The notes below the pieces were generated by a model. It was not told the origin of the DNA and did not search any database. It worked only from the letters and a program-made list of their open reading frames with translations. Shown piece after piece: positions 25,578 through 63,062 of a stretch of 64,000 nt of DNA. Made by a program: the position numbers and the translations under genes. How positions within the stretch are numbered: the stretch's first letter is position 1; each line of letters begins with the position of its first letter. This DNA comes from an uncultured delta proteobacterium (GTDB taxonomy: Bacteria; Myxococcota_A; Polyangia; Polyangiales; Polyangiaceae). The stretch covers positions 4,384,001-4,448,000 of the forward strand of contig CAWAIF010000003.1 in the NCBI GenBank assembly GCA_963782055.1. Direction: 5' to 3'.

Positions 25578-25730
25578 GCCGGTTCGTGCGCGCGCATTTC
25601 TGAAGCGGACGGCGCTGAGCGCGGGGTGTCCGGGGTGTCCGGATGACTGTCCGCGGCCACCCCCCAGGCAGCGCATATCCCGAAGATCGCACCCGTTTCC
25701 TGCTGGCATGGGACGCGCACTGGCCAGGGC

Positions 25731-27452
25731 GTGTCGTCCCTCGCCGCGCCGTACGCGCCTCGGCAGCCCACCGAGACGCCGCTCTACCGCCTCGTCCGCG
25801 CCGGCCTGCAGACCTTCCTCCGCTGGGCGCGCGAGAGCTACAGCAAGCCCGTCCCCCGCTACGTCCAGCAGGATCTCCGCGGCTACCTGAAGTGCGGCGT
25901 CTTTCGCCACGGCTTCCTGCGCGCGCATTGCGACGCCTGCGGCCACGATCTGCTCGTCGCGTTCTCCTGCAAGGGCCGCGGCGTCTGCCCGAGCTGCGCG
26001 GGACGCCGCATGGCGAACACCGCCGCCCACCTGGTCGACCGCGTCCTCCCGGACGTCCCCCTCCGCCAGTACGTCCTGTCCCTTCCGTACGAGCTCCGCC
26101 GCCTCGCCGCCTTCGACCCCGTGGTGCTCCGCGCGCTCGCGCGCATCTTCGCGGACGCCATCTTCGCCAGCCACCGCCGCCGCGCCCGCGCAGCGGGGTT
26201 CGATCAGGTCGCCAGCGGCGCGGTCACCTGCGTCCAGCGCTTCGGGGGGAGCCTCAACCTCAACGTCCACTTCCACACCATCGTCATGGACGGCGTCTTC
26301 CTGCGCGAGCCGGACGGCTCCCTCGGCTTCGTGCCCTTGCCGATGCCCACCCGCGCCGAGCTGCAGCAGCTCGTCACCGCCGTCAGCCGTCGCGCCATCG
26401 CGTGGCTCCGCCGCCACGGTCACCTCTCCGAGGATCCGGTGGACCTCGACGTCGAGCCGAGCGCCCTCGACGCCTGCGTGGCTCTCGCGATGCAGCGCCC
26501 GAAGGTGCTGAAGCTCGCGATCGACCCCGGCGGCGACGACGACGACGACGCAGCCGCCCCCGCCATGGCTCACCGCGCGGTGGAGGACACCGGCTTCAAC
26601 CTCCACGCCGGCGTCCGCGTCCGGGACAATCTCGCCCGCGAGCGCCTCTGCCGCTACGCCCTGCGCCCCGCGCTCGCCCTCTCGCGCCTACGCCTCCTGC
26701 GCGACGGCCGCGTCGCCTACCGCGTCAAGCAGCCGCGCGCGGGCAAGGCGAAGCACATGATCCTCACTCCGGTGGAGCTCCTCGCCCGCGTCGCCGCGCT
26801 CGTCCCGCCGCCGCGCTACCCACTTGTCCGCTACCACGGTGTCCTCGCCCCCCGATCGTCGTGGCGGAAGCTCGTGGTCCCCAGGCCGCGTGAGCCGTCC
26901 GCCCCGTCCTGCGGGCCTCCGCGTCCTTCGCGCCCCCTCGTCCCCGCGAAACCCGGGCAGCCCATCGAGAGGCGGGCGCATCGCGACACCACACATGCGG
27001 CAGAGAGGCCCGACCCCGTGCGCCGCGATCCCGCGGGGGCGGCCAGCACCACGAGCGCGCCGCCCGCGGGCCAGCTCGCCCTCCCCCTCCCGGTCCCGCC
27101 ACCCGCGCCCGAGACCGCCGCACCCGCGGCCGCCGCAGACCTCCACGTGCGCCGTCTCGCACCCAACGTCGTCGCCGTGGGCCACTGGGAGCGCCTTCGC
27201 CGCGGCCTTCTCTACGCAGCGACATCCCGCATCGACTGGCCGCGCCTGCTCCGCCGCACCTTCGAGATCGACGTGCTCCAGTGCCCGACCTGCGGGGGCC
27301 GCCTCCGTCCCCTCGCCGTCATCACCGACGACGCCGCCGTGGTCCGCATCCTCCGCGCTCTCGACCTCCCCGCCGAAGCCCCCGCACCTGCCCGCGCCCG
27401 CGATCCGACCGACCTCCTCGACCTCGCCGCAGACGACCCCCCCGCCGCCTGA
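25731..27452 (+). CDS. ISCR/IS91-family rolling-circle HUH transposase, intact (573 aa)
   Basis: Zn-binding CDAC...SCKGRGVCPSC, HUH motif NVHFH, single catalytic Tyr RYALRP, RYHGVLAP, C-terminal WPRLLRRTFEIDVLQCPTCGG. Confidence 0.9.
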   Translation: MSSLAAPYAPRQPTETPLYRLVRAGLQTFLRWARESYSKPVPRYVQQDLRGYLKCGVFRHGFLRAHCDACGHDLLVAFSCKGRGVCPSCAGRRMANTAAHLVDRVLPDVPLRQYVLSLPYELRRLAAFDPVVLRALARIFADAIFASHRRRARAAGFDQVASGAVTCVQRFGGSLNLNVHFHTIVMDGVFLREPDGSLGFVPLPMPTRAELQQLVTAVSRRAIAWLRRHGHLSEDPVDLDVEPSALDACVALAMQRPKVLKLAIDPGGDDDDDAAAPAMAHRAVEDTGFNLHAGVRVRDNLARERLCRYALRPALALSRLRLLRDGRVAYRVKQPRAGKAKHMILTPVELLARVAALVPPPRYPLVRYHGVLAPRSSWRKLVVPRPREPSAPSCGPPRPSRPLVPAKPGQPIERRAHRDTTHAAERPDPVRRDPAGAASTTSAPPAGQLALPLPVPPPAPETAAPAAAADLHVRRLAPNVVAVGHWERLRRGLLYAATSRIDWPRLLRRTFEIDVLQCPTCGGRLRPLAVITDDAAVVRILRALDLPAEAPAPARARDPTDLLDLAADDPPAA

Positions 27453-27488
27453 CCACGCGGCAGCGCGCCCGTCCGACTAGCGCGTGCT

Positions 27489-27588
27489 CACCCTGGTCCG
27501 TCCTTCCAGTGACACCGGACGGCCCCACTTCGCATAAGATGGATTCCGTAAACTTTCGCGCCCGACCGCGCTAGGATTTCCTATGCGC
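27489..27588 (+). repeat. Repeat A copy R1
   Basis: Direct sequence match. Confidence 0.97.
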
Positions 27589-27901
27589 TACGTTCCGGCC
27601 AGGGCTCATCGAAGGTGAAACCCTCTAGCATGCTGAGTCGGCCAGAACGGATGAAGAGCACGAATCCGACACCGCGGACTAGGCCGCCGACCTCTGCGTA
27701 AACATCGCTGATCTGGAAGTCTCCATCTGCGAGTGGTGCGCCTGCATCCACAGCGAAGTCGCAAAAAAAGCCGACGCCAGTTCGCCTCCGCCCGACAACG
27801 CGAGCCGCATCGGCCTGTAGTCGAAGGGTAGCTAGTGTCGGATCATCGCCGGCGAGTTGCTTGTCGAGCACGGCGCGTTCCAATGTGCTTAAGTTATCCA
27901 T
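27581..27901 (-). CDS. Immunity-protein-like hypothetical; stop codon supplied by R1
   Basis: GGAGGT RBS; TGVGFFCDF...GFVLFIRSGRLSMLEGFTFDEPWP; lower GC. Confidence 0.55.
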   Translation of the reverse strand: MDNLSTLERAVLDKQLAGDDPTLATLRLQADAARVVGRRRTGVGFFCDFAVDAGAPLADGDFQISDVYAEVGGLVRGVGFVLFIRSGRLSMLEGFTFDEPWPERSA

Positions 27902-27928
27902 GTCAGGTCCGTACCTCCTAGCTAGGGA

Positions 27929-28028
27929 GCGCATAGGAAATCCTAGCGCGGTCGGGCGCGAAAGTTTACGAAATCCATCTTATGCGAAGTGGGGCCGTCC
28001 GGTGTCACTGGAAGGACGGACCAGGGTG
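27929..28028 (-). repeat. Repeat A copy R2 (inverted)
   Basis: Reverse complement of the consensus. Confidence 0.97.
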
Positions 28029-28487: not shown

Positions 28488-28588
28488 CACGTAGGTCCGG
28501 GTTTTCCAGTCGGAGCGAACGAACCTTTTCGTATGACGTGTGTTTCGTAAACTTTTCCCGCCCGATCGCGCTAGGATTTCCTATGTGC
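28488..28588 (+). repeat. Repeat A copy R3 (degenerate)
   Basis: 3' half TTTCGTAAACTTTTCCCGCCCGATCGCGCTAGGATTTCCTATGTGC well conserved; 5' half diverged (CACGTAGGTCCG..TTCCAGT). Confidence 0.8.
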
Positions 28589-28888
28589 CTCGCCTGGCGA
28601 GAACATGAAGCTCTCGTCGGCGTTCTGCATGACGTGCCCGTCGTCGGCGTCGAGCTCGCGGACCATGTCGCGACGAAGACGAGCGAGACCGCGCTGCACG
28701 TCGCTGAAGACGCACGGGAGGCCTGGTATGCTCTGGAAGAAGGGTCCGACGATGGACGGAGACCGTCGAGGGTGGTCCATGACCTACGAACGTGTCGCCT
28801 GGTGCTTTCTTCGTCGCTCGGTCAGCGCCGAGGCCATCGGCGGGAGGCTCGCTCCTTCGCCTCCCGAACCGCGACGATCCGCTCGACT

Positions 28889-28988
28889 CACCCTGGTCCG
28901 TCCTTCCAGTGACACCGGACGGCCCCACTTCGCATAAGATGGATTCCGTAAACTTTCGCGCCCGACCGCGCTAGGATTTCCTATGCGC
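28889..28988 (+). repeat. Repeat A copy R4
   Basis: Identical to R1. Confidence 0.97.
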
Positions 28989-29356
28989 CGCGAGCCGGGC
29001 GCGTTGGTGTGCGCGAGCTCGTCGACGAGGATGAGGGACGGCTTTCGTTCGAGCGCCTTGTCGAGGTCGAACTCCTCGACGGCGACGCCTCGGTGCTGCT
29101 CCTTGCGCCTCGGGAGCAGCTCGAGGCCGATGACGAGCCCCGCGGTGTCGTAGCGGCCGTGCGTCTCGACGATGCCGATGACTACGTCGCGGCCCCCGTC
29201 CTTCTCGAGGCGCGCCGCCTCGAGCATCGCGTACGTCTTGCCGACGCCGGGCGCCGCGCCGAAGAAGATGGTCAGCTTGCCGCGATGCTCGCGCTTCTCC
29301 TCCTCGGTGACCTGCCGGAGGAGCTCGTCGGGGTCGCGGCGCGCGCCGAGGGCCAT
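28989..29356 (-). pseudogene. kdpD: KdpD N-terminal fragment cut at R4
   Basis: GKLTIFFGAAPGVGKTYAML...LVDELAHTNAPGSR, then reads into the repeat. Confidence 0.92.
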
Positions 29357-29375
29357 TGACCGAAGATACCTCGGG

Positions 29376-31529
29376 TCAGACGAGATGGAGCGCGACGAGG
29401 ATGACGTCGATCAGCTTGATGCCCACGAACGGAACGACGACGCCGCCGAGGCCGTAAATCAGGAGGTTGCGGCGGAGCAGGGCCGCCGCGCCGAGCGCTC
29501 GGTACCGAACGCCCCGGAGGGCGAGCGGGATGAGAGCGATGATGACGAGGGCGTTGAAGATCACCGCGGAGAGGATCGCGCTCTTGGCGGTCTCGAGGTG
29601 CATGATGTTGAGCGCGCCGAGCGCCGGGTACGTGCCGAGGAAGACCGCCGGGATGATCGCGAAGTACTTGGCGACGTCGTTGGAGAGGCTGAAGGTCGTC
29701 AGCGCGCCCCTCGTGATGAGCAGCTGCTTGCCGATCTCGACGATCTCGATGAGCTTCGTGGGGTTCGAGTCGAGGTCGACCATGTTGCCGGCCTCCTTCG
29801 CGGCCTGCGTGCCGGAGTTCATCGCGACGGCCACGTCGGCCTGGGCGAGCGCCGGCGCGTCGTTCGTGCCGTCGCCGGTCATGGCGACGAGGCGCCCACC
29901 GGCCTGGTTCTCGCGGATGAGCTTGAGCTTGGTCTCGGGCGTGGCCTGCGCCAGGAAGTCGTCGACGCCGGCCTCGGCGGCGATCGCCGCCGCGGTCATC
30001 GGGTTGTCGCCGGTGATCATGATCGTCTTGATGCCCATGCGGCGGAGCTCGGAGAAGCGCTCCTTGATGCCACCTTTGACGATGTCCTTGAGCTCGATGA
30101 CGCCGAGCACCCTCTCGCGCTCGGCGACCACCAGCGGCGTCGCGCCGCGCTTGGCGATCGTGTCGACGGCGCGCTGCACGTCGCCCGGGAACGTGCCGCC
30201 CTTGGCGCGAACGTAGGCCTCGATCGCATCGGCGGCGCCTTTTCGGATCTCGCGATCCTTGGTGTCGACGCCGCTCATCCGGGTCTGCGCGCTGAAGGGA
30301 ACGAAGGTCGCGTCGAGGTCGGCCATCGCGCGCTCGCGCACGCCGAATTTCTCCTTCGCGAGGATGGTGATGCTCCGGCCCTCCGGGGTCTCGTCCGCGA
30401 TGGACGCGAGCTGGGCCGCCTCGGCGAGCGCCTCGGGCTTCACGCCCGGCGCGGGCACGAAGGACGACGCCTGGCGGTTGCCGAGCGTGATCGTCCCGGT
30501 CTTGTCGAGCAGGAGCACGTCGACGTCGCCCGCCGCCTCGACGGCCCGCCCCGAGGTGGCGATGACGTTGGCCTGGACCATGCGGTCCATTCCCGCGATG
30601 CCGATCGCGGAGAGCAGCGCGCCGATGGTCGTGGGGATGAGGCATACGAGCAGCGCGACGAGCGCGGTGATGCTGATCGGCTCCCCCTTTCCGGCCGCGT
30701 GCACGCTGAAGATGGAGAACGGCAGGAGCGTGACGCAGACGAAGAGGAAGATGATCGTGAGCGCGGCGAGGAGGATGTCGAGGGCGATCTCGTTGGGAGT
30801 CTTCTGGCGCTTGGCGCCCTCGACCATCGCGATCATGCGATCGAGGAAGGCCTCTCCGGGGTTGGCGCTCACGCGCACGATGATCCAGTCGGACAGGACG
30901 CGCGTCCCGCCGGTGACCGCGCTGCGATCGCCGCCGCTCTCGCGGATGACCGGCGCGCTCTCACCGGTGATCGCGCTCTCGTCGACCGAGGCGACGCCAA
31001 GGACGATCTCTCCGTCGACCGGGATGAAATCGCCGGTCTCGACGAGGACGACGTCGCCCTTGCGGAGCGCCGTCGACGCGACGCGCGTCACGGCGGCGTC
31101 GCGCTCCGGCCGCGCGAGCTGCTTGGCCTGGATGTCGCGGCGAGACTTGCGGAGCGCGTCGGCCTGCGCCTTGCCGCGCCCCTCGGCCATCGCCTCGGCG
31201 AAGTTGGCGAAGAGCACGGTGAACCAGAGCCAGGCGGAGATGGCGCCGATGAAACCGGGCGACGCCTCGCCGTGCCCCCCGAGCGCGTGGAAGAAGAGCA
31301 GCGTCGTCAGCAGGCTGCCGACCTCCACAACGAACATCACCGGGTTCTTGATCTGATGGCGCGGGTCGAGCTTCGCGAAGCTGGCGCCGATCGCGCCCTT
31401 GACGATCGCGGCCTCGAAGAGCGGGCGCGCGACGGCGCCTTTGTCGCCTTCGCCGGCGGCGCGATCGCGCGCGGGCGCCGCCGACGGCGCGCCGGGGGCG
31501 ACAGGTGCGGTGGGGTTCTCGTGTTTCAT
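29376..31529 (-). CDS. kdpB: K+-transporting P-type ATPase subunit B
   Basis: [27 protein letters not shown]. Confidence 0.96.
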
Positions 31530-32080
31530 CGGAGTGCGTCCAGAGCGAGGTTCAGTTCCAGCACGTTGACGATCCGGTCGGGGGTGAGCGGACCGCCGGG
31601 AGAGACAGTCTGTGCGTCGATGAGCGACTCGACGCGTGCGACCGGCAAGCCGCGGGCGTGGGCGACTCGCTCGGCCTGGTAGCGCGCGGCCTCGGCGCTG
31701 ATGTGGGGATCGAGGCCGCTGCCGGACGCGGCGACGAGATCGGCCGGGATGGGCTCGTCGGCGGTGGCCGCGTACGTCCCGACGAGCTTGGTCGCGCGGT
31801 CGGTGAGGTCCGAGCTCGTCGGCGACTTGTTGCTGCCGCCGGCGGCCGAGGCGTTGTAGTCGACCGCAGAGGGCCGCGGCCAGAAGTACTTCGGGCTCTC
31901 GAACTTCTGAGCGATGAGCCGGCTGCCCACGACCGCACCGTTCGGCCCGCGCAGGAGCGAGCCCTCGGCGCCGTCGTGGTCGACGACCTGGGCGAACGCG
32001 AAGACGAGCAGCACGTAGCCGACGACGCAAACGAGGATCGTGGCGAGCGCGACACGCAGACTGGCGAGGAGCGATTGCAT
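31526..32080 (-). CDS. kdpC: K+-transporting ATPase subunit C
   Basis: [29 protein letters not shown]. Confidence 0.95.
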
Positions 32081-32090
32081 GGCTTTACCC

Positions 32091-33767
32091 TCAGTGCATG
32101 AACTGGAAGTGCTCGGCGATGGGACCGAGCGCCGCCACCGGGAAGAAGGTGAGCGCTCCGACCACGACGATCGTCGCGGCGAGCATCACCCCGAAGGTGC
32201 TGTCGCGCACGCCGAGCGTCCCGCTGGACTCCGCCGTGGCCTTCTTCGACGCGAGTGACCCGGCGATCGCGAGCGGAAGGATGATGGGGATGAAGCGCGC
32301 GAGCATCATGACGACGCCGGTCGCGATGTCCCAGGGCGCCGTCCCGTCGCCGAGGCCCTCGAACCCCGAGCCGTTGTTGGCGCTCGCCGAGCTGAACTCG
32401 TAGAGCATCTCGCTGAAGCCGTGGGGGCCGGTGTTGTTCAGCGTCGTGGTCCCCCAGGACGTCACGGCGAAGATCGCCGTGCCGCCGAGGACGAGGAACG
32501 CATGAGCGAGGAGCGCGAGCGCCGCGAGCTTCACCTCCCGCGCCTCCACGCGCCGGTTCAAGTACTCCGGCGTGCGGCCCACCATCATCCCGGCGATGAA
32601 GACCGCGATGACGATGTAGAGGAACATGTTGATCATCCCGACGCCGACGCCGCCGAACGTCTCGTTGAGCCACATCCCGATCATCGGAAAGAGCCCGGTC
32701 ATCGGGTTGAGGCTGTCGTGCATCGCGCCGACCGAGCCGTTGCTCGTCGAAGTGGTCATGACCGCCCAGAGCGGCCCGGTGGCCGCGCCGAAGCGGAGCT
32801 CCTTGCCCTCGAGGTTCGGCAGATGCGTGATCGGCAGGCCCGCGAAGGCCGCCGTCGGCGCCTGCTCGAAGTGGACCGCGCCGCCGACCTTGACGAGCAG
32901 GAGCGCCATCATGACGGCGAAGACGACCGTCGCGTGACCCATGCGCGAGGTCATGCGGCCGAACATCCACACGCACGCCATCGGGATCTGGGTGATCGCG
33001 ATCAGCTCGACGGCGTTGGTCCAGAACGACGGGTTCTCGAACGGATGCGTGCTGTTCGGGCCGAAGAAGCCGCCGCCGTTGGTGCCGATCTGCTTGATGG
33101 CCACGAAGGCTGCAACCGGACCTCGGGCGATGAGCTGCTCGGCGCCTTCGAGCGTCGTCGCGTGGGCCGCGCCGTGGAAGGTCATCGGCATCCCGCCCAG
33201 GGTCAGGAGGAAGGCGACGCCGACCGCGACCGGCAAGAAGACGAGGAAGGTCGCCCGCTGGAGGTCGACGAAGAAGTTCCCGAGCTGCTTGCGCCCGGCG
33301 AGTCCGCGCGCCATCGCCGCGAGCGCGGCGACGCCGGTCGCCGCCGAGACGAACTGGAGCCACATCAGCGCGAAGAGCTGCGAGAGGTAGCTCATCTGCT
33401 GCTCGCCGGAGTAGTGCTGGAGGTTCGTGTTCGTGGTGAACGACGCCGTCGTGTTGAAGACGGTGTGGGGCTCGAGCGCCTTCATCCCGTCCGGGTTGAG
33501 CGGCAGGTGCTGCTGGAGCGCCATCACGCCGTAGCTCACGACGAACATGACGACGTTGAAGACGAGCATGTCGACCGCGTACCGCTTCCAGCCGTGCTCT
33601 TCGCGGCCGAGCTTGCCGGCGACGGCCACGAAGAGGCGGTCCAGCCGCTCGCGGCGCGGACCGGCGCTCTCGCCGGGATCCATGGCCCATTTCATGTAGC
33701 GACCGAGCGGCCACGAGAGCGCCGCGCAGCCGCCGACGATGAGAATGACGAACAGGAGCGCGCTCAT
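32091..33767 (-). CDS. kdpA: K+-transporting ATPase subunit A
   Basis: SFTTNTNLQHYSGE, KQIGTNGGG, NNGSGF. Confidence 0.96.
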   Translation of the reverse strand: MSALLFVILIVGGCAALSWPLGRYMKWAMDPGESAGPRRERLDRLFVAVAGKLGREEHGWKRYAVDMLVFNVVMFVVSYGVMALQQHLPLNPDGMKALEPHTVFNTTASFTTNTNLQHYSGEQQMSYLSQLFALMWLQFVSAATGVAALAAMARGLAGRKQLGNFFVDLQRATFLVFLPVAVGVAFLLTLGGMPMTFHGAAHATTLEGAEQLIARGPVAAFVAIKQIGTNGGGFFGPNSTHPFENPSFWTNAVELIAITQIPMACVWMFGRMTSRMGHATVVFAVMMALLLVKVGGAVHFEQAPTAAFAGLPITHLPNLEGKELRFGAATGPLWAVMTTSTSNGSVGAMHDSLNPMTGLFPMIGMWLNETFGGVGVGMINMFLYIVIAVFIAGMMVGRTPEYLNRRVEAREVKLAALALLAHAFLVLGGTAIFAVTSWGTTTLNNTGPHGFSEMLYEFSSASANNGSGFEGLGDGTAPWDIATGVVMMLARFIPIILPLAIAGSLASKKATAESSGTLGVRDSTFGVMLAATIVVVGALTFFPVAALGPIAEHFQFMH

Positions 33768-33859
33768 GGCTTTTGCTCCGTACGCGCCGTCGCGCTGGTG
33801 AGCGCGAACATCAGCGCGAAGCACGCGAGGCCGAGCAGCAGGTAGAGAAGGTTGCTCAT
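33764..33859 (-). CDS. 31-aa hydrophobic peptide between kdpF and kdpA
   Basis: MSNLLYLLLGLACFALMFALTSATARTEQKP; ATGA overlaps with both neighbours. Confidence 0.6.
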   Translation of the reverse strand: MSNLLYLLLGLACFALMFALTSATARTEQKP

Positions 33860-33948
33860 TGCATCGACTCCGGTTTCAGCATCGCGAACATCAGGTAGAC
33901 GAAGAGCGCGGCGGCGACGACGAGGCCGATCCAGTAAAGGGGTGTCAT
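33856..33948 (-). CDS. kdpF: K+-transporting ATPase subunit F
   Basis: MTPLYWIGLVVAAALFVYLMFAMLKPESMQ; YLxxAxxxPE signature; AGGAG RBS. Confidence 0.85.
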   Translation of the reverse strand: MTPLYWIGLVVAAALFVYLMFAMLKPESMQ

Positions 33949-33961
33949 GGGAGACTCCTGA

Positions 33962-35353
33962 TCAGAACCAGGCGGTGGCGCCGAGGGTGAGGGTGTCTTG
34001 GGAGGTGGTGTTGGGCACGTACGGCGTCGTGACGCCGTCGCCGGTGACCTGACCGCGGAAGAACATGTCGCCGTCGGCATGGTCGTGGCGGTACTCCAGC
34101 CGGATGGAGAGGTGGTCGGGCGTCGGGCGGACGTCGATCGTCGCCGTGGCCGAGCTGACCCAGTCGGTGGGCCAGAGGATGGCGGACGCGCCGGTCGGAA
34201 CGGACTCGTAGAAGGCGTCGCCGCGCGCCGCGAGGTAGAGCCAATCGGCGATCTTCACGCGCGCGTAGAGCGCGCCGGCGGCCCAGCTCGACGTCCCGAA
34301 GCGGTTCGGCTCGAAGCCGCTGTTCGCGTGCAGCAGCATCGAGAAGCGCGAGTTGAAATCGAGCTGAGCGTAGCCGTCGAAGTCGCTCCGCCAGTACGGC
34401 CCCTCCGGCGCTCCGGTCGACCGCTCGACGCCGCCGAAGTAGAGCAGGTGTCCGGTGAAGATGCCCTTCTTGTAATCGACGCTCGTCGAGACCGATTTTT
34501 CGTCGTTGTTGTCGACGACGCTGTTCCAGCCGTTGTAGCCGGCGAGCGTCGCGACGAGACCGTTGCCGAAGTCGTAACTGGCGCGAACGCCCGTGTGATA
34601 GGCCGGCAGCGCGAAGAACACGTCGGAGCGCGACCAGTTCCAGTTGTCCTTGGCCGCGATCCCCTCGGCACCGATCGGAGACAGGAAGAGCCCCGCCTGA
34701 AGCAGCAGCCCGTTTCCGATGGGGGCCTTCCAGCCGAGGTTTGCCTCCTGGACGTACTTCCAGAGATCGCCGTCGCTGGCCGCCGCGCCGCCCGCCCCAG
34801 GCGAAACAGGCTCGCCGAGATAATAGGTCGACGGCGTCTGACCCACTTGCAGCACGACCTTCGCGGTGACGCTCGCGTAGTCGAGCGTGGCGCCGGCGGC
34901 GACGTTCTGGAGCGTGAAGGTGTTGTGGCGGTTGTCGTAGCCGCGATAGTTCGTGATGCCGTTGGACGGCTCGTTGAAGTTCCACGAGTACGCCGTCTCG
35001 ACGTAGCCGAGCGGCGTCACCTTGGCCTCCGGCGCCGCGTCGGTCTTCACCGCGGGGGCCACCTGCGCGGGCGGCGCGGCGGAGGACTGCGCCGCCGACG
35101 CGGTGGGTTGCGCGGCGCTGGGCTGCGCAGCGGCGGTCGTGGCCGGCGGCGGGGGCGCGGTCTGCGACGGGGCGGCGCTGCCCTGCTGGGCGGTCGAGGT
35201 CGGCTGTCCTGCGTCCACCGTCGCCGTCGCCTGCGCCGTCTCGCTCGGCGCGGGCTGCGCGAGCACCGGAACGGCGAACGCGACGACCGAAAGGCACGCG
35301 ACACCGGCGAGGATTCGAGAGCGAGAGTGGGTCATGGCTTTTGAGGAGGTCAT
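33962..35353 (-). CDS. Putative outer-membrane porin/beta-barrel
   Basis: Signal peptide, GYVETAYSWNFNEP, NWNWSRS, C-terminal F; first gene of the kdp unit. Confidence 0.75.
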   Translation of the reverse strand: MTSSKAMTHSRSRILAGVACLSVVAFAVPVLAQPAPSETAQATATVDAGQPTSTAQQGSAAPSQTAPPPPATTAAAQPSAAQPTASAAQSSAAPPAQVAPAVKTDAAPEAKVTPLGYVETAYSWNFNEPSNGITNYRGYDNRHNTFTLQNVAAGATLDYASVTAKVVLQVGQTPSTYYLGEPVSPGAGGAAASDGDLWKYVQEANLGWKAPIGNGLLLQAGLFLSPIGAEGIAAKDNWNWSRSDVFFALPAYHTGVRASYDFGNGLVATLAGYNGWNSVVDNNDEKSVSTSVDYKKGIFTGHLLYFGGVERSTGAPEGPYWRSDFDGYAQLDFNSRFSMLLHANSGFEPNRFGTSSWAAGALYARVKIADWLYLAARGDAFYESVPTGASAILWPTDWVSSATATIDVRPTPDHLSIRLEYRHDHADGDMFFRGQVTGDGVTTPYVPNTTSQDTLTLGATAWF

Positions 35354-35557
35354 GTCGATGGCGCGTGGACGTTAAGGACCGGCGAATAAAGAAACGATAA
35401 ATTCGGCGTTTCGCCGCGCGCGGTCGCTCGAGGGCAGCAAGGCATGGGCCACCTCTGCAGAGCGCGCATGTCCCCTTCGCGGGAAGCGCGCGCCCACGCG
35501 TAGCACGTGTGCGGGTGGGTCATGCGCTCACGCCATGCACCCAGCGACGGACCACGG

Positions 35558-35770
35558 TCAGTGTCGCGCCGCAGGCGCGGCTTGTGTCTCCGCTGACTCT
35601 TGAAAGAGGGGTCGAGCTCCAGCGCGCGCGCCGCGCTCCGACTGGGCCGCGATCGACGCCACGACCGCGAGCAGGGCGAGCGAGGTGACGAGCGAGCCCA
35701 CCAACCAGGCGATGGGAACGACCGAGTCCACGAGGCGCATGACTTCTGGCGGGGTTACGTCGGGCTTCAT
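35558..35770 (-). CDS. Small membrane hypothetical protein
   Basis: ATG start, one TM segment. Confidence 0.35.
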   Translation of the reverse strand: MKPDVTPPEVMRLVDSVVPIAWLVGSLVTSLALLAVVASIAAQSERGARAGARPLFQESAETQAAPAARH

Positions 35771-36028
35771 GATGCGATCACGTTAGGAACCGCGCGCCAA
35801 AGAAACGGTAAATTCGGTTCGGACTCCTCCGTTTGAGCGCGATGGCTCGCGCCCGCCGGCGGCAGCGGCGCGAGCCGGCAACAGAGAGACTACTCTCGCC
35901 GGCGTCCGGTGACTCCGGTTGGCGTTGCGCACCGGCGGGGAGGACGAGGCTGGCTCGGCGAGCGAAGGAAGCGCCAGGTCCGGCCATTTAGTGAGCCTTT
36001 AGCGGTGGCTGGTCATACTGCCTGCGTC

Positions 36029-36268
36029 ATGTCTCACCCTTACCGGACGCCAGCGAGCGAGCCCGAGAGCCCGGCGCCGCGCGACACGCGCGCCGCGCTG
36101 GTGCTCGACGCCGAGATCGTGCTCCTGATCATCTCGACGATTGGCGTCGTGCACGGCTGCCGGCAGGGCTTCACCGCCGTCGACGGCGCCGCCTTCGCGG
36201 CGTTCCTCTTCTCCGCGCGGGAGATTGTCCGCGCCGTGTGGCGCCGGTACCGCGTCGCTCCCGGTTGA
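36029..36268 (+). CDS. Small membrane hypothetical protein
   Basis: MSHPYRTP..., two hydrophobic segments. Confidence 0.45.
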   Translation: MSHPYRTPASEPESPAPRDTRAALVLDAEIVLLIISTIGVVHGCRQGFTAVDGAAFAAFLFSAREIVRAVWRRYRVAPG

Positions 36269-36306
36269 TCGGACGCCCCCGGGCGTACTGGCGTACCATC
36301 GGTGCG

Positions 36307-36748
36307 ATGAACCCCACCGCAGCGCGCGCCCGCACGCTGGCGCACATGCGTCGTGTGCTCGCCGGCGCCACCGTCGCCGCGGCGGGCTGCTCGCACGAAA
36401 CGGCGCCGCCCACCACCGTGGTGCTGCCGGCGGCTCCGCCCGCGTCGGTCGCCGCGGCGAGCGCCGACGCGGGAGCACCCGCGCCCTCGGGAACAGCGGT
36501 GGCCGCTGCCTCGGCGTCGGCCCGGCGCGTGACGCCGAACCTCAACCCGCTCACGACGCACCCGATGATGGGGTCGGACCCTGTGCCCCCGCCCTCCTAT
36601 TGCCCGGGCGTGGGCAAGGCCTCGAAGGCGTCGGGACGGCTGTTGCACGACGCCGCCGGCACGCTCGTGGAGCTCACCGTCTCGCTCCCCGCCTCCGGCC
36701 CGAACGCCGCGACCTTCTCCGCCGCCGGGCAGCCGTCGGCCGCGCAAC
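36307..36748 (+). pseudogene. Lipoprotein truncated at R5
   Basis: Lipobox AAGC; ORF has no own stop and reads into the repeat. Confidence 0.6.
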
Positions 36749-36848
36749 CACCCTGGTCCGTCCTTCCAGTGACACCGGACGGCCCCACTTCGCATAAGAT
36801 GGATTCCGTAAACTTTCGCGCCCGACCGCGCTAGGATTTCCTATGCGC
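36749..36848 (+). repeat. Repeat A copy R5
   Basis: Identical to R1. Confidence 0.97.
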
Positions 36849-39261: not shown

Positions 39262-39376
39262 ACTCAACTGGGCATCGTCCCGCGGCATGTTGAAAGTTGA
39301 GGTGTGTTTGAACAGCGTCACGTAGATCGAGGGAGAGACGCGCCGATCTGGTCACGTTCCGCGAGGGGCGGATAAA

Positions 39377-41031: not shown

Positions 41032-41110
41032 ATAAACGAAGCCCCTCAGAAGACTTGTCCGAAGACCTTCTGAGGGGCTCGCCTCCGAGTTGTCGAGACC
41101 GGAGGTGGAC

Positions 41111-41296
41111 ATGTTCGACCAGATCGAGCTTGGGAGCGAGTTTTTCGAGGGGCTGACCAAGATCGACGAGCGGATCGCGCGGGCGGTGGCCGCACGGGGC
41201 TGCGTGTGGTGCGGGGGCCCACTGCACCGCGCGGACCATCCCCGCAAGCCACGCGGGCTGATCGCGGTCGCCGCGGAGGCCTTGGGTCGCCTGTAA
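41111..41296 (+). pseudogene. Truncated CxxC protein, probable IS accessory-gene remnant
   Basis: GGAGG RBS; GCVWCGGPLHRADHPRKPRG; ends abruptly. Confidence 0.45.
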
Positions 41297-42788: not shown

Positions 42789-42888
42789 CACCCTGGTCCG
42801 TCCTTCCAGTGACACCGGACGGCCCCACTTCGCATAAGATGGATTCCGTAAACTTTCGCGCCCGACCGCGCTAGGATTTCCTATGCGC
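42789..42888 (+). repeat. Repeat A copy R6
   Basis: Identical to R1. Confidence 0.97.
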
Positions 42889-43154: not shown

Positions 43155-43254
43155 CACCCTGGTCCGTCCTTCCAGTGACACCGGACGGCCCCACTTCGCA
43201 TAAGATGGATTTCGTAAACTTTCGCGCCCGACCGCGCTAGCATTTCCTATGCGC
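43155..43254 (+). repeat. Repeat A copy R7
   Basis: Variant TTTCG / TAGCAT. Confidence 0.97.
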
Positions 43255-43262
43255 TCCTCTGT

Positions 43263-47863: not shown

Positions 47864-47963
47864 CACCCTGGTCCGTCCTTCCAGTGACACCGGACGGCCC
47901 CACTTCGCATAAGATGGATTTCGTAAACTTTCGCGCCCGACCGCGCTAGCATTTCCTATGCGC
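47864..47963 (+). repeat. Repeat A copy R8
   Basis: Same variant as R7. Confidence 0.97.
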
Positions 47964-49279: not shown

Positions 49280-49479
49280 CACCCTGGTCCGTCCTTCCAG
49301 TGACACCGGACGGCCCCACTTCGCATAAGAGGGATTTCGTAAACTTTCGTGCCCGACAGCGCTAGCATTTCCTATGCGCCACCCTGGTCCGTCCTTCCAG
49401 TGACACCGGACGGCCCCACTTCGCATAAGATGGATTTCGTAAACTTTCGCGCCCGACCGCGCTAGCATTTCTTATGCGC
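49280..49479 (+). repeat. Repeat A copies R9+R10, head-to-tail with no spacer
   Basis: Junction ...CCTATGCGC|CACCCTGG... at 49379/49380. Confidence 0.97.
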
Positions 49480-53618: not shown

Positions 53619-53718
53619 CACCCTGGTCCGTCCTTCCAGTGACACCGGACGGCCCCACTTCGCATAAGATGGATTCCGTAAACTTTCGCGCCCGACCGCG
53701 CTAGGATTTCCTATGCGC
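53619..53718 (+). repeat. Repeat A copy R11
   Basis: Identical to R1. Confidence 0.97.
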
Positions 53719-55681: not shown

Positions 55682-55781
55682 CACCCTGGTCCGTCCTTCC
55701 AGTGACACCGGACGGCCCCACTTCGCATAAGATGGATTTCGTAAACTTTCGCGCCCGACCGCGCTAGCATTTCTTATGCGC
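55682..55781 (+). repeat. Repeat A copy R12
   Basis: Same variant as R10 (TAGCATTTCTTATG). Confidence 0.97.
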
Positions 55782-56026: not shown

Positions 56027-56536
56027 ATGACGGTGTTGGGTCCTGATAGCTTTTGGACCACCGCGTCGATGGTCGCGAGGCGACCTGCATGGGTCCCGGT
56101 GCAAGCCGCCTATGAGCTGAAGCGCCCAGTGCTCGTGCTGGGAAGGCAGTGGACGCTTTGTTGCAAGCTGCACCTAATACCGGTCCTTCGCCGGCGCCGG
56201 CCTTTGGGCAGTGTGGCTATTCGTGCTAGTGTCACAATGTGGCCGCCACGATACGCAGCCAAGTACCGAGAACGGCTGAAGCAAGCTGGTTGGTACAAGG
56301 TGGTGGCCGCGGAACTGCGAGTGCTTGGGTACCACGGCACGTGGTGCGATTGGGAGAACGGGAAGATGGCTGATTTCTGGAAGGATATTGCCTCGGCTGA
56401 CGACGTTGGCCGCGAACTCGCACAACTGGAGCAGTTCGATCCCGCCACTCCGGAGCCGGCGGACGAGCGAAGCCGGTTGCCCAACCGCCGAACGTCCCGC
56501 GCACGGCCGGGCCACCCTGGTCCGTCCTTCCAGTGA
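56027..56536 (+). CDS. Hypothetical protein, stop inside R13
   Basis: Lower GC; ATGA overlap with ORF 55776-56030. Confidence 0.45.
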   Translation: MTVLGPDSFWTTASMVARRPAWVPVQAAYELKRPVLVLGRQWTLCCKLHLIPVLRRRRPLGSVAIRASVTMWPPRYAAKYRERLKQAGWYKVVAAELRVLGYHGTWCDWENGKMADFWKDIASADDVGRELAQLEQFDPATPEPADERSRLPNRRTSRARPGHPGPSFQ

Positions 56537-56612
56537 CACCGGACGGCCCCACTTCGCATAAGAGGGATTTCGTAAACTTTCGCGCCCGACCGCGCTAGGA
56601 TTTCATATGCGC
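56513..56612 (+). repeat. Repeat A copy R13
   Basis: Variant AGAGGG / TTTCATATG. Confidence 0.97.
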
Positions 56613-57376: not shown

Positions 57377-57426
57377 CACCCTGGTCCGTCCTTCCAGTGA
57401 CACCGGACGGCCCCACTTCGCATAAG
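57377..57426 (+). repeat. Repeat A copy R14, left half
   Basis: Positions 1-50 of the consensus, ends ...CGCATAAG. Confidence 0.95.
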
Positions 57427-57753
57427 TAAGAGTCGATTGCGTGAGCGCGCCGGGTCGCGGCGGCGGTCGCGTGGCGCGGGTGCGCGGTCGCGAAATCGAC
57501 GGTTGGACGAAGCCGGTGCGCGGCAGCGGCGAGGCGGTGGCCTCGGAGCCCTATGGGGAAGTTGGCGGCGTGTGGGTCACGTGTGCGGGTGCGCGAGGTG
57601 CGGAGCGGGCGGCGGGACGGCGCTCGACGCGGGCGTCCCGGAGCGCGCAGCGGGCAGCCGTGCGTGCTCGGAGGCCGGGTTTTCGTGGCGTGGATGGACA
57701 GGGGCCTGGGCCGCACTCGTGGAGCGAGCGCAGTGGAGCACGACGCGGGGAGA

Positions 57754-57979
57754 TCATGCGGCCCCCGGCGGGTCGCGAGCTCGGGGCTCCGGCAGCGCGG
57801 TACGCACGAGGGCAGGCGTGTGGCAAGCGGGGCAGCGGTGCAGGTCGATGCCCGCGATTCGCAGCAGCAGGTCGGCGGCGTCGACACGGCGCACCGGTCG
57901 CGCAGCGGGCGCCGCGTGCGGACCCAGTCTGCGGCGTGCGGTCTCGAGGCGCGTGGTGGCGTGGCTGGCGGAGTGCAGG
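57754..57979 (-). pseudogene. IS91 transposase C-terminal part, separated by IS66
   Basis: Own translation LHSASHATTRLE...GIDLHRCPACHT...RDPPGAA* continues ...KIRHYGLH. Confidence 0.85.
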
Positions 57980-58053
57980 GTAACCCATCGGTGATCTGAC
58001 GTACTCCCCGGCGGGACGGATCCCCGCTACGCGCATTGGCGGAGGTCAGCGCG

Positions 58054-58386
58054 ATGGGAAAGCGGGACGGTGCGCGGCAGTGGCGGCAGTGGACGGAGCA
58101 GCAGGCGCGGGCGGCCCTCGCGGAGCTCGCGGCGAGCGGTGAGAGCGCGGCGGGCTTCGCGCGGCGCAAGGGCGTGTCGTCGCAGCGGCTCGCGTACTGG
58201 AGGGGCCGCCTCGCGCGTCCGGCGAGCACGGAGTTCGTGGCCGTGGAGCTTGCGGGCGACAGCCTGGCGCGGTGGATGGAGATCGTCGTTGGGGGTGTGG
58301 TCGTTCGCGTGCGGGAGGAGCTGGACGCGGAGCGGGTGGCGCAGCTGGTGAGGGCGCTCGGGCGGCAGGTGGGCGGCGCGTGCTGA
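58054..58386 (+). CDS. tnpA: IS66 TnpA
   Basis: [14 protein letters not shown]...LAYWR, FVAVEL. Confidence 0.85.
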
Positions 58387-58754
58387 CGCTGCCGCCCGGC
58401 GTGCGCGTGTTCGTCGCGACCGAGCGCGTCGACGGGCGCAAGGGGATCGACGGGCTCTCGGTGCTCGTGCGGTCACGGTTCGCCGAGGACCCGCTCTCGG
58501 GGACGATGTTCGTCTTCTTCTCGCGTCGCGCCGACCGCGTGCGAGTCCTGTACTGGGATCGCGACGGCTACGTGCTCATCACCAAGCGGCTGGAGAAGGG
58601 AAGCTACCGGTTGCCGTGGCCCGGCGAGGGAGGGCGCGCGGTCATCGAAGCGGCGGAGCTGCTCCTGGTGCTCGAGGGGATCGAGCTTCGCGGGGCCGGC
58701 CGGCGGATGCGCTGGTCGCCCTCCCCCCGTGTGCGACCGGCGCCCACTTTGTGA
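58380..58754 (+). CDS. tnpB: IS66 TnpB accessory protein
   Basis: [23 protein letters not shown]. Confidence 0.9.
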
Positions 58755-58822
58755 GATCCATCTTCGTGGCTGCGATCGAATCGTCTTTCCATCGGGCGCG
58801 CCCTGCGGCAAAGAGGATCAGC

Positions 58823-60424
58823 GTGTCCGCGTCGAGCAACAAGCACCCGCCCATCACCAGCGCGATCGAGCCCGATCTCGGCGCGGTGAGGAAGTTCATC
58901 GCGGACATGATCGCCAGGGGCGCCGTCGCCGAGCTGATCGCTGCGGTCGTGGGGTTGCTCGTGCGCATGCGCGAGCTCAACACGGAGTTGATGCGCAGGG
59001 TCGCGAGCAAGTCGCGCAGGCGCCCGCCCAACGAGGCGATGCGGCGCCTGCAGATGGAGCTGCCGTTTCTGTGCGCGCCCGCCGCCAACGATGGCGCCAA
59101 ACCCGGCCTCCCCCGGGAGAAGAAGCCGAGGAAGCGCGGCGCCCACAAGCCCACGCCGCATGGCCGGCCCAAGCTGCCGGCGCACCTGCCGCGCGTCCCC
59201 AACGTGCTCCTGGTCCCCGCCGCCGATCGCGTGTGTCCGGACTGCGACGTCGCGCTCACGCGCGTCTGCCTCAAGACCACGGCGGAGAAGCTCGACGTCA
59301 GGCCGTCGGAGTACATCGTCGTGCAGACGCAGCTCGAGACGTGCTCCTGTCCCAAGTGTCGCCGCTACCTCGTGACCGCGCCCACCCCGGACGAGGTCGT
59401 GGATCGTGGGCTGCTCGGCGACGAGCTTCTCGTGCAGGCGCTGGTGGATCACTACCAGGACGCGGTGCCGTGGGAGCGGATGGAGCGCAACGCGCGACAA
59501 CAGGACGTGCCGCTCGCCGCCAACACGGTGGCGTCCTCCGTCGGGAAGGTGATCGACCTGTTCGACCCCGTCGTGCGCCACATCCGCGAGGCGTGCCTGT
59601 CGTCGAGCTTCACCGCGCTCGACGCGACGCGCATGCCCGTGCTCGACCCGACGCATCCGCTCGGCATCAAGAGCGGCGCGCTCTGGCTCATCGAGGGGGA
59701 TCATCGCCATGCGTGCTTCCTCTACGCGCCGAGCGGCCACGCCGAGCACCTGAAGAAGTTCTTCGAGGGCCGCACGCTCCGCAGCGTGATGTGCGATGGG
59801 TCGCCCACCAACAACTGCGTCGAGCACGCCGGCGGCCATCGTGGCGGCTGCAACGCCCATGGCCGGCGCGGCCTGGTCGAGGCGCTTCGTCGCGGCGACG
59901 CGCGCGCCGTGCCCGGGCTGGAGCTCTACGCCAAGATCTTCCACGTCGACGCCCAGTCCAGGCGCGCAGGCGAGAGCATCGACCGGCGCTTCGAGCGGCG
60001 CCTCGAGGACAGCGCGCCCATCGTGGCCGAGCTTCGCGCCTGGCTCTCCCTGCGCCTCGCCGACGTCGAGCCCAGGAGCGTGCTCGGCCAGGCGCTCCGC
60101 TACCTCGATCGCCAGTGGTCGCGCCTCACGGCCTTCCTTCGCGATCCGCGCATGGAGCTCACCAACAACGAGGTCGAGGCCGGACTTCGGACCTGGGTCC
60201 TCGATCGCAAGACGTGGCTCTTCGTCGGCCACGAGCAGAGCGCACGCCGCGCCGCCGACGCCCTCACCCTCCTCACCACGTGCAAGAAGATGGCGATCGA
60301 CCCGCGCGCCTACTTGCGCGACACCCTCGCGAGGATCCTCGCTGGTGAGAAGAGCCTGGCGGCGCTGCTGCCGGAGACCTACGCGGCCTCGCGCGCCGAG
60401 CGGGCGCCACCCCGCGCCGCGTAG
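58823..60424 (+). CDS. tnpC: IS66 TnpC DDE transposase
   Basis: GRPKLPAHLPR, CPDC, DAT, CNAHGRR, NNEVE, DPRAYLRD. Confidence 0.9.
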   Translation: MSASSNKHPPITSAIEPDLGAVRKFIADMIARGAVAELIAAVVGLLVRMRELNTELMRRVASKSRRRPPNEAMRRLQMELPFLCAPAANDGAKPGLPREKKPRKRGAHKPTPHGRPKLPAHLPRVPNVLLVPAADRVCPDCDVALTRVCLKTTAEKLDVRPSEYIVVQTQLETCSCPKCRRYLVTAPTPDEVVDRGLLGDELLVQALVDHYQDAVPWERMERNARQQDVPLAANTVASSVGKVIDLFDPVVRHIREACLSSSFTALDATRMPVLDPTHPLGIKSGALWLIEGDHRHACFLYAPSGHAEHLKKFFEGRTLRSVMCDGSPTNNCVEHAGGHRGGCNAHGRRGLVEALRRGDARAVPGLELYAKIFHVDAQSRRAGESIDRRFERRLEDSAPIVAELRAWLSLRLADVEPRSVLGQALRYLDRQWSRLTAFLRDPRMELTNNEVEAGLRTWVLDRKTWLFVGHEQSARRAADALTLLTTCKKMAIDPRAYLRDTLARILAGEKSLAALLPETYAASRAERAPPRAA

Positions 60425-60486
60425 CCCTCACGGACATGCGCTCCGGGGGGCTGACGCGCCGCCGGGGCCGTGCTTTCGTGCACGTC

Positions 60487-60945
60487 ATGTTGCCGCTCGA
60501 AGGCTCGTTGCTGGAGAAGTTGCGCAAGATCGAGGCGCTCCACGCGGGCACGCGCGTGGATGGCGAGCGCGAGGCCGCGCGGCGCGCCGCCGAGCGCATT
60601 CGTGCCCGGCTCGCCGAGCTTCGCGGCCGCGAGCAGGACACCCTGCTCCACTACACCCTGCCCGATCCCTGGACACGCAGGCTCTTCGTCGCGCTGTGTC
60701 GCCGCTACGGTCTCGTCCCCTTTCGCGAGAGCGGCCGCCGGTACACCACCGTCCAGGTGCGCGCACCCAAGGCCTTCCACGACCACACGCTCTGGCCGCA
60801 GTTCCTCGCGCTCTCCGAGGAGCTCAACGCGCACCTCGACGAGCTCACCACCCGCGTCATCCGCGAGGCGATCAACGACGACGTGAGCGACCCGCAAGAC
60901 GGCGCTCCGCCCAAGGCGCTGCCCGAGCCGACTCGCGGCGCCTGA
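60487..60945 (+). CDS. Hypothetical passenger protein inside IS66
   Basis: LEKLRKIEALHAG..GEREAA; lies between tnpC and the right IR. Confidence 0.65.
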   Translation: MLPLEGSLLEKLRKIEALHAGTRVDGEREAARRAAERIRARLAELRGREQDTLLHYTLPDPWTRRLFVALCRRYGLVPFRESGRRYTTVQVRAPKAFHDHTLWPQFLALSEELNAHLDELTTRVIREAINDDVSDPQDGAPPKALPEPTRGA

Positions 60946-61036
60946 CGCCGTCATGGCTCCAGCCGACGGCGGGCGGACAGCACGCGCCAGTCGCCGGATC
61001 AACAGGCCCCGTGGACGTCGATCACCGATGGGTTAC

Positions 61037-61979
61037 GGTGCAGGCCGTAGTGGCGGATCTTGACGAAGCCGCGCGGCAGCACGTGCTGGACGAAGCGCGC
61101 GAGCAGCTCCTCGGCCGGGACGGTGACCGACTTGCCGTCTCTGGTGCGGAAGGTGACGCCGCGCTCGCCCATCGAGACGAAGCGGTGGTTGGAGATGCCG
61201 ACGCGGTGAGTGTAGCGACCGAGGTAGCGGATGACCTGAGCGGGGCCGCCGAAGGGTCGCTTGGCGTAGACGACCCAGGCCTTGCGTCGGAGCGCCAGCA
61301 GGTCGACGCCGCCCAGGTCGACGAGGCCGCGCGCGTGGGCGCGCTCGAGAGCGGCGAGCATCTTGCCGCGAAAGAGCGCGCCCATCACGCGCACGGGGAA
61401 GAGGAAGCGACGGCGCGCGCGCACCCAGCGCGCGGCGTGGCCGGTGAGTCCGCCGCCGGTGACGATGGCGTGCACGTGGGGGTGGAAGAGCAGCGCGCGC
61501 GTCCAGGTGTGCAGGACCATCGTGACGCCGAGCTCGGCGCCGAGCCACTTCGGATCCCGCGCGAGGGTGGCCAGCGTGTCGGCCGCGCTCGCGAAGAGCA
61601 TGTCGAAGACCCGCGCGCGCGAGCGCCGCGCGACGGCGCGCAGCTCGGCGGGGAGCGTGAAGACGACGTGGAAGTAGTGCACGGGCAGAATGCGCTCGAG
61701 CCGCGTGGCGACCCACCGCGCCTGCGCGAGCGACTGGCACTTGGGACAGTGCCGGTTGCGGCACGAGTTGTACGACGGTCGCTCGAGCCCGCACGCGGTG
61801 CACACGTCCAGATGTCCGCCCAGCGCGGCGGTCCGGCATCGCTCGATCGCCCGCAGCGCCGACCGCTCCTCGGGACGCAGCACGCGGCCGCCGGCGAAGG
61901 CCTCGCCGTGGGCGCGCACCACGTCCGCGAGCTCGATGGGCGCCGCGCGCGTGCGCGCGGGCGCACACGACGGGTGCAT
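61037..61979 (-). pseudogene. IS91-family transposase, N-terminal part (IS66-interrupted)
   Basis: SCRNRHCPKC, HPHVH, YLGRY (Y2), KIRHYG. Confidence 0.92.
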
Positions 61980-61985
61980 CGGGGC

Positions 61986-62831
61986 TCAGGGCAGCGCGTC
62001 GAGGGGGCTCTGAATCGACTGCACGCGGGCGGTGCTCACGTGCAGGTAGGCCATCGTGCTCCTGAGCGACGCGTGCCCGAGCAAGACCTGCAACGTGCGA
62101 AGGTCGGTCCCTGCGTCGAGCAGGTGCGTGGCGAAGCTGTGGCGCAGCGTGTGCGGCGACACGCGCCGGGTGATGCCCGCGCGCCGCGCCGCCTTGAGGA
62201 TCGCCCGGTGGACGGCCGCGCGCGTGAGGAGCGTCCCGGGCACGCGCCCCGGAAACAGTTGCGGTCCTGCGGGTCGTGACGCCTTCCAGTACGCGCGCAG
62301 CGTCGCCAGCAGCCTCGCGCTGAGCATCACGTAGCGCTCACGCCCGCGCTTGGTGTGCCGCACGTGCAGGAGCATCCGCTTCGGATCGATGTCGTCCACC
62401 CGGAGCTTGCACACCTCGCTCACGCGCAGCCCCGCCCCGTAGGCGAGCATCACCAGGGCCCGGTGCTTGTGGCTCGTGAGCGACGCGAGCAGCCGCGCCA
62501 CCTCCGCGCTCGTCAGCACCACCGGCACGTGCATCGGCACCCGCATGCGCGCCATCCCCAGCGTCGCCTCCGGCCGCTCCAGCGTCACCTCGTAGAGAAA
62601 CCTCAGCGCGGCCGCGTGCACGTTGACCGTCAGCGCCGCCAGCCTGCGCTCCGCCACCAGGTGCAAAAGGAACGTCCGGATCTCCGCCGCCCCCAGCGCG
62701 CACGGCGACCGCCCGTGGTACTGCGCGAACCGCCGCACGCACCCCACGTACGTGGCGATCGTGTTGGCGCTCATCCCTCGCAGCGCGAGGTCCTCGCTCA
62801 TCGTGTCCCGCAGTCTTCGCTTCGCACCCAT
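61986..62831 (-). CDS. Tyrosine recombinase/integrase
   Basis: GLRVSE, HTLRHSFATH, LLGH, TMAY. Confidence 0.93.
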   Translation of the reverse strand: MGAKRRLRDTMSEDLALRGMSANTIATYVGCVRRFAQYHGRSPCALGAAEIRTFLLHLVAERRLAALTVNVHAAALRFLYEVTLERPEATLGMARMRVPMHVPVVLTSAEVARLLASLTSHKHRALVMLAYGAGLRVSEVCKLRVDDIDPKRMLLHVRHTKRGRERYVMLSARLLATLRAYWKASRPAGPQLFPGRVPGTLLTRAAVHRAILKAARRAGITRRVSPHTLRHSFATHLLDAGTDLRTLQVLLGHASLRSTMAYLHVSTARVQSIQSPLDALP

Positions 62832-63009
62832 CGCGGCCTCCTTCGGCTCCGCGCGCGCCCACGAGCGGGCGGCGCGCGCCGCAGGATCGCCCGCATCACG
62901 GCACGCGAGGGCTACGAGGCGGGCTCGTCAGCGCGCACACGGCTCGCGGGGCTCCCGGGTCGCGAGCGAGCTTGATGCGGAGCCACGCTGCCGCGCAGCG
63001 GCTTCGTCC

Positions 63010-63062
63010 AAGATGGGTTTCGTAAACTTTCGCGCCCGACCGCGCTAGGATTTCCTATGCGC
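63010..63062 (+). repeat. Repeat A copy R14, right half
   Basis: AAGATGGGTTTCGTAAAC...TTTCCTATGCGC. Confidence 0.95.

Follow-up and report, generated by a model that had tools for sequence, protein, structure and literature searches.

Repeated oriIS modules behind an ISCR-type transposase gene: a likely capture array of units with a dif-like centre in an uncultured member of the Polyangiaceae

The closest described relatives of the locus studied here are ISCR1 and ISCR2/ISVsa3, with which it has in common the transposase family, an oriIS lying 3' of the transposase gene and the end motif. Variable DNA is described on the oriIS side of ISCR elements and no ISCR had been shown to transpose as of 2018, according to the portion of text available from PMC6218425. 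ISCR28 has been reported as a two-oriIS "sandwich" capturing one gene (Yuan 2024, as cited in the available portion of PMC12772301), and miniature right-end derivatives of IS801, 229, 360 and 679 nt long, have left ends without a stem-loop in the available sections of Bardaji et al. 2011 (PMC3189936). Precedents thus exist for capture at the oriIS side, for miniature right ends and for the two-oriIS sandwich. Our locus differs from ISCR elements in that the recurring part is just the fixed end of 100 nt, present many times over in polarised arrays, in that the integron context is absent, and in an ori region of 136 bp compared to 232-235 bp in ISCR1 and ISCR2. A literature search, with most subscription papers outside its scope, found no paper on long arrays of a fixed ori module or on their dif mimic. 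As each part of the locus has a precedent, we would not propose a new class unless ordered growth or use of Xer recombination were shown.

The window (the whole 64,000-nt stretch of DNA that was analysed) carries at 25731..27452 on the + strand an open frame of 573 amino acids for an ISCR-group HUH rolling-circle transposase, as judged by its domains (Y2_Tnp and Zn_Tnp_IS91), its motifs (HUH at 180-182 and a single-tyrosine motif which aligns with those of ISCR1 and ISCR2) and its identity to its closest named plasmid relatives, ISCR2/ISVsa3 (~40%) and ISCR1 (39%). The single-tyrosine motif is what we take to distinguish ISCR from IS91. Two open copies and one frameshifted copy of the transposase gene are present in the genome, and as the two open copies align over 1973 bases at 97.6%, from C3:4409624 (equivalent to window position 25624) to the end of the repeat unit described below, the autonomous element is about 1.97 kb long. 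Its left end and upstream region lie at 25624..25730 (+), with a shared boundary at 25624 that rests on two copies only, no empty site having been seen, and this left end is dissimilar to the left half of the repeat. Both copies retain short direct repeats at 25624-25660 but diverge over the following 60 nt. In three congeners (3 of 5 loci) the 12 kb that follow the phosphatase gene lying upstream contained no transposase match, and no sigma-70 outward promoter or terminator was found in 27440-27640.

A 100-bp unit had been predicted from the sequence at 27489-27588, and this was borne out, with the unit ending 136 bp past the transposase stop at 27452. This transposase-proximal unit, at 27488..27588 (+) if it is counted as 101 nt with the T at 27488, is marked by the copies and junctions as the template for the array repeats. 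The window contains 12 full copies (11 on the + strand and 1 on the - strand) plus 1 diverged variant and 1 copy split by an insertion; searching the genome (7.58 Mb in 3 contigs, ~72% GC) gave 19 full copies at 94% identity or more, and 33 complete units were compiled by hand genome-wide, with split, variant and worn units counted in. A DNA comparison with 40 other genomes gave matches in 5, all of them partial, and an exact 22-nt search of metagenome contigs gave 0 matches. No RNA run was listed for the organism. Contigs from two DNA runs, of which the organism makes up small shares, do not span the locus and the joints seen in them come from other organisms; two short contigs of run X2 contain the unit with different flanks and were not counted as support.

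The right end of the unit (27565..27588, +) had been read as an ISCR-type oriIS, partly on a stated 14/19 match to the ISCR2 end. The reading was confirmed, though the similarity proved lower than stated: 12/19 against the ISCR2 record and 11/19 against ISCR1. Pairwise alignment to the ISCR1 and ISCR2 ends was rejected as proof of an oriIS, being no better than chance within those loci, where the last 22 nt match the fetched records at 13/22 (ISCR2) and 12/22 (ISCR1) and chance matches reach 13. The evidence comes instead from a profile built on the right boundaries of 11 homolog units, with the window and the ISCR sequences excluded, which ranked the ISCR2 and ISCR1 ends first of 7,194 and 7,086 positions respectively and put 14 window ends first among 127,952 positions. 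The ISCR1 end which it found coincides with the 22-mer and the 232-bp ori region in the literature (as given in the available parts of PMC13023784 and PMC6218425), and the register of the unit's end equals that of the published ISCR1 oriIS. The repeat is, with very little doubt, the oriIS module of an ISCR-group element.

Hairpins had been proposed at both ends of the unit, and both a 6-bp 5' stem with a 13-nt loop (an inverted repeat at 27498..27522, +) and a bulged 3' stem do appear in the predicted fold, but they are weak and unconserved. Folding of the whole unit was not beyond chance when compared to shuffles (z -1.39 and -1.30), nor did the 5' 40 nt stand out (z -0.75 and -1.41), the 3' 26 nt being the only part to fold better than shuffles (z -2.2 and -2.8). 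Of 30 right ends, 17 keep all 8 pairs of the 3' stem, and none of 13 homolog ends does so. Among 43 left halves, 37 have an unbroken 5' stem, and a worn copy shows one compensatory change in it. We therefore rejected folding as a sign that the hairpins are functional, given the weak z-scores and the absence of conservation. An alternative pairing, said to become perfect in two copies, is indeed perfect in them (49380-49479 and 55682-55781), but as a feature in its own right it is unsupported: it uses the XerC arm of the dif-like site considered below and, by eye, is not retained in homolog units. The 5' hairpin had also been suggested as a ter site; the fixed left end does act like a termination cut, but a variant family lacks the stem while keeping an identical left boundary, and the autonomous element's left end at 25624 has another sequence. 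The conserved feature on the left is thus the position of the cut plus a short T-C-A or T-C-T start, rather than a hairpin.

The units of the window are separated by segments of unrelated content, which we read as captured DNA, a feature that the original prediction had overlooked. The proximal unit is followed by a segment of 340 bp (27589..27928), identical to C2:3479-3818 at 100% over its full length, then by an inverted unit (27929..28028, - strand), a segment of 459 bp with a GC content of 0.57 that is the sole copy in the genome (28029..28487), the diverged variant unit (28488..28588, +), whose boundaries agree with those of the other units, also in an alignment read by eye, and which lacks the 5' stem though its centre is dif-like, and a segment of 300 bp (28589..28888), which matches C3:6832600-6832888 at 98% over 97% of its length. 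Both donor loci, on C2 and on C3, are repeat-free. A unit at 28889..28988 (+) precedes a 7.8-kb segment (28989..36748, - strand) with a porin gene, kdpA, kdpC, a kdpB-type ATPase gene and a kdpD truncated at the unit; this second kdp potassium-uptake operon is 64-81% identical to the native kdp locus. Repeat searches placed further units, all on the + strand, at 36749..36848, 42789..42888, 43155..43254, 47864..47963, 53619..53718, 55682..55781 and 56513..56612, together with two head-to-tail units at 49280..49479 in which the ori end is joined directly to a left end. At 39375-42788 lie two tandem DDE_Tnp_1_4 IS copies, the second truncated at a unit's left end, and 47121-47651 (-) is the 3' end of a second ISCR-like element, beside which 134 bp recur at 92% at 43255-43388, starting the same segment.

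Genome-wide, the 31 segments that were measured range from 266 to 11,939 bp (median 3,216), and they may truncate genes, as with kdpD, yet can hold whole operons; one DNA stretch is present in three segments with different ends. Most other segments either have no outside copy in the genome or match it only in IS-type multi-copy parts. At least one flank could be traced elsewhere in the genome for 21 of the 33 units, and the left and right flanks of each unit are unrelated to one another: the continuation of the donor matches the other flank at no more than 7 of 12 positions, the head-to-tail pair aside.

This bears on the original prediction of a free, non-autonomous mini-ISCR, under which units would have hopped singly into nearby DNA and the mosaic would have arisen via later deletions between units. 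The unit has an intact right end, a fixed internal left end and no transposase, as is expected of a miniature IS91-family element, and is itself probably such a product; the fixed ends and the head-to-tail pair fit as well. Miniature IS801 elements likewise consist of the right end plus an internal termination point, and in the available part of PMC3189936 they are mobilised by the parent transposase, are proven and make up 26% of IS801 insertions. Those, however, were trapped as plain target-gene insertions with a tetranucleotide end (PMC3189936, same sections), whereas our units have non-contiguous flanks, follow the junction rule described below and form arrays. None of the 21 traceable units interrupts a contiguous target, the donor loci are without a unit, and the copies are co-oriented and confined to few clusters, so that as the whole story independent hopping is largely refuted already and we regard it as quite improbable.

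The units instead stand co-oriented in arrays behind copies of the transposase gene, with arrays spanning about 76-90 kb, and their identity declines with distance from the transposase (rho -0.76 for 39 half-units and -0.84 for 23, the half-units in these correlations not being independent of one another). A third, short array lacked this trend (rho +0.32, n=7). The identity of segments to their donors does not change monotonically along the array (100, 98, 95-98 and 92-98%) and was not used as support. An isolated unit at C3:5977016-5980806 has a 188-bp left flank that recurs at 93% about 1 kb rightward.

The junctions follow a rule. At the left end of the unit the junction base is C in all 33 units, the cut lying between C and C in 22 and between C and T in 11, and because the donor has C there in three cases, the T found at the left junction comes from the transposase-proximal template. 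At the right end, the segment starts with a pyrimidine in 30 of 33 units (30 of 32 in another count), positions after the first base at the ori junction are free, and the tetranucleotide target of IS91, IS801 and IS1294 is not seen. By hand count, the donor at the segment end reads C then a pyrimidine (the C-Y rule) in 10 of 12 cases, several being multi-copy elements, while the donor or sister base before the segment start is C in 0 of 9, also by hand count, which argues against single hops of the unit, given that left junctions always have C. A full-length donor exists in the genome for just 2 of the 31 segments, so that the rule rests on about 20 junctions, several of them in multi-copy elements. 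Homolog units, of 82-185 bp, have a fixed start too. In the proximal copy it usually reads T-C-A or T-C-T, and in the array copies it is preceded by C, with the exceptions of loci L014, L023 and L067.

Such regularity also bears on the view that the arrays are by-products, scars of one-ended transposition, inversion and homologous recombination in a hot spot, with unordered growth. The arrays are indeed rich in IS copies, some inverted units exist, and most IS801 fragments were judged to be rearrangement products by Bardaji et al. in the sections available (PMC3189936). There are also short ori-only pieces of 26-36 nt, at C3:4469416, 4476447, 4485743 and 1152935, which are possibly earlier stops. 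Random rearrangement would not, however, be expected to give base-exact left ends across many unrelated unit families, nor the junction rule, the polarity and the exact donor copies, and so we give this explanation little credence. A capture array built by the transposase is in our judgement the likely reading, and within it we lean towards the unit being the right-end module of an ISCR-group rolling-circle element working as a capture tag.

The centre of the unit, in a way that the original prediction had likewise not noted, resembles the site at which host XerCD acts. A short dif-type motif search gave a computational candidate for the host dif at C3:3558740-3558767, 43 kb from the GC-skew maximum, which is single and uninterrupted and resembles published myxococcal dif sites in the available part of PMC2731167. 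Unit positions 39-66 (27527..27554, +) match this candidate at 23 of 28, with an 11-6-11 layout and an altered inner XerD arm. All 20 sites in the genome at 21-23/28 fall in units, and the best outside, at 20, is itself a worn copy; matches across unit copies count as one observation, not twenty. In relatives, the unit of genome G032 agrees with the dif candidate of its host at 19 of the 22 arm positions (reached in 0 of 200 shuffles), and the listed arm letters of unit and host candidate are identical in G157; both units share their hosts' XerC-arm variant, which differs from that of the source genome. Tested in one orientation against the source genome's dif, 8 of 32 homolog ends passed, 6 of them lying 36-48 nt from the ori end, while no match was found in the other 24 of 32, nor in the last 150 nt of ISCR1 and ISCR2. 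A host dif search in five relatives found one, with a looser pattern being noisy. In five loci (L020, L023, L031, L133 and L135) a motif of 11-6-11 layout, some 31 nt away from the ori end, is reverse-dif-like by eye. The dif-like centre probably binds host XerCD, while a working role for the host enzymes is a possibility that we hold tentatively.

Integrative elements exploiting Xer (IMEX) provide the nearest parallel for such a site. CTX and TLC have a rolling-circle HUH enzyme beside a dif mimic, and pdif sites come as inverted pairs. Like the units, IMEX of the CTX and TLC kind carry an 11-6-11 site resembling the host dif, an altered XerD arm having been studied for TLC attP (available part of PMC9226527). 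Our units differ from IMEX and pdif modules in being direct repeats, away from the chromosomal dif, and in that their segments end at the ori or the left cut and not at the dif spacer.

Host XerCD might, then, integrate, excise and shuffle [DNA + unit] circles that the transposase has produced, in the manner of pdif modules or IMEX phages. The match to dif, tracking host variants, speaks for this, as does Xer integration explaining the confinement of units to arrays; an XerD gene passes the cut-off (an XerC-like gene is just short at 322 bits against 335), and a tyrosine recombinase element, described below, already uses the site. The unit spacer is nearly constant and differs from the host dif spacer at 2 of 6 positions, so that exchange between units would be favoured. 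Module boundaries, however, lie at the unit ends rather than at a dif crossover, and the variant unit at 28488-28588, where hybrids would be predicted, is whole, so that its insertion is unlikely to have come about by a crossover at dif. Arrays also occur where no dif match was found (L056, L058 and L061), the negatives for L056 and L058 being weak as the looser search pattern is noisy and the G243 candidate dif is doubtful, and the inner XerD arm is altered at positions of the kind that matter for FtsK-driven recombination in V. cholerae (available part of PMC9226527). Taken together, this makes Xer-driven cassettes an unlikely account of the arrays.

One element does appear to be specialised on the dif-like site. 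A unit at 57377..63062 (+) is split there into a left half at 57377-57426 and a right half running to 63062. Between the halves (57427-63011) lies an integrase plus Y2 element, into which IS66 genes are in turn inserted. Its gene for a tyrosine recombinase (61986-62831) and its transposase-like gene of the IS91 two-tyrosine type (60999-61979) together occupy 60999..62831 on the - strand. Genome-wide, 12 of 13 left ends of this 2.5-kb element lie at the arm/spacer edge of a unit, the crossover being at the XerC-arm/spacer edge, which is presumably where XerC cuts. In a variant case there is no shared spacer, and such insertion without spacer homology suggests integration by a single-strand exchange. 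At 3 of 13 ends (C3:5212702-5216047, 6186555-6191356 and 2272361) the right end of the integrase element houses a group II intron-like element, which has a reverse-transcriptase frame and is in turn broken by a DDE-type frame; a group II intron at the unit centre was considered as a sign of a hairpin and rejected, as it sits within the integrase element's end. The dif-like centre of one unit also harbours an IS (C3:4450609-4452125) that has inverted ends and is accompanied by a short target duplication. In locus L070 (G120:C4), downstream of the transposase, there is a second type of unit whose left 60 nt are the same but which differs from just past the dif-like site, as if another element had integrated there.

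A transposase match at E<=1e-60 was found in 81 of 251 genomes of the order, and 143 loci were examined, of which 49 had the C-terminus plus 450 nt downstream, 32 gave ori calls (10 of these ends belonged to the training set of the profile) and 16 had at least 5 kb downstream. In 7 of these 16 the locus's own ori end is repeated, with 15 of 17 copies co-oriented, while the other 9 have no second ori end. As part of the loci were fetched as downstream DNA only, the observed 16:1 downstream bias is no fair test.

Returning to a capture array built by the transposase, the following order of strand transfers is put forward tentatively. The transposase would nick the bottom strand at oriIS, between a purine and G, IS91 being described as using bottom-strand circles in the available part of PMC13181058. 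Replication would stop after 100-101 nt at the internal cut, and the released strand would be joined to donor DNA at a C-Y site, with copying then running on along the donor for 0.3-12 kb until it happened to stop ahead of a pyrimidine. The resulting [donor DNA + unit] would insert at an existing oriIS junction, itself of C-Y type, mostly near the transposase. The dif-like centre may aid resolution or excision of pieces via XerCD, this being the least certain step. The model fits because the segment ends are asymmetric and the variant unit is whole and non-hybrid, but it leaves the inverted unit at 27929-28028 unexplained, with its two ori-type and two left-type neighbour ends (the first segment is bounded by ori junctions on either side, the second by left-end junctions).

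Taken further, the locus could be a polarised acquisition platform, in which an ISCR transposase samples kilobase pieces of its own or incoming DNA and files them with an ori tag, a dif mimic matched to the host lets XerCD excise or reshuffle them, and a second element has specialised on the site; in this full form the proposal is speculative and we consider it rather doubtful. In the way it works, though only in that, it would be like integrons and CRISPR, where an enzyme gene is followed by co-oriented repeats around foreign DNA, the youngest nearest the enzyme. The head enzyme here, however, is an HUH transposase and not IntI or Cas1-2, the repeats are near-identical and not attC-like, and the segments, at 0.27-12 kb, cut through genes such as kdpD, which sets the array apart from an integron.

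It has long been asked how ISCR elements come to collect genes next to oriIS, and this locus makes the capture step directly testable, as it provides a transposase in an open frame, a 100-nt candidate substrate whose two putative cut positions are placed to the base, exact donor loci and a junction rule. The host-matched dif mimic connects rolling-circle transposition with Xer recombination. The acquisition platform, if true, would be a third kind of capture array besides integrons and CRISPR, and would explain the captured genes on the oriIS side of ISCR elements.
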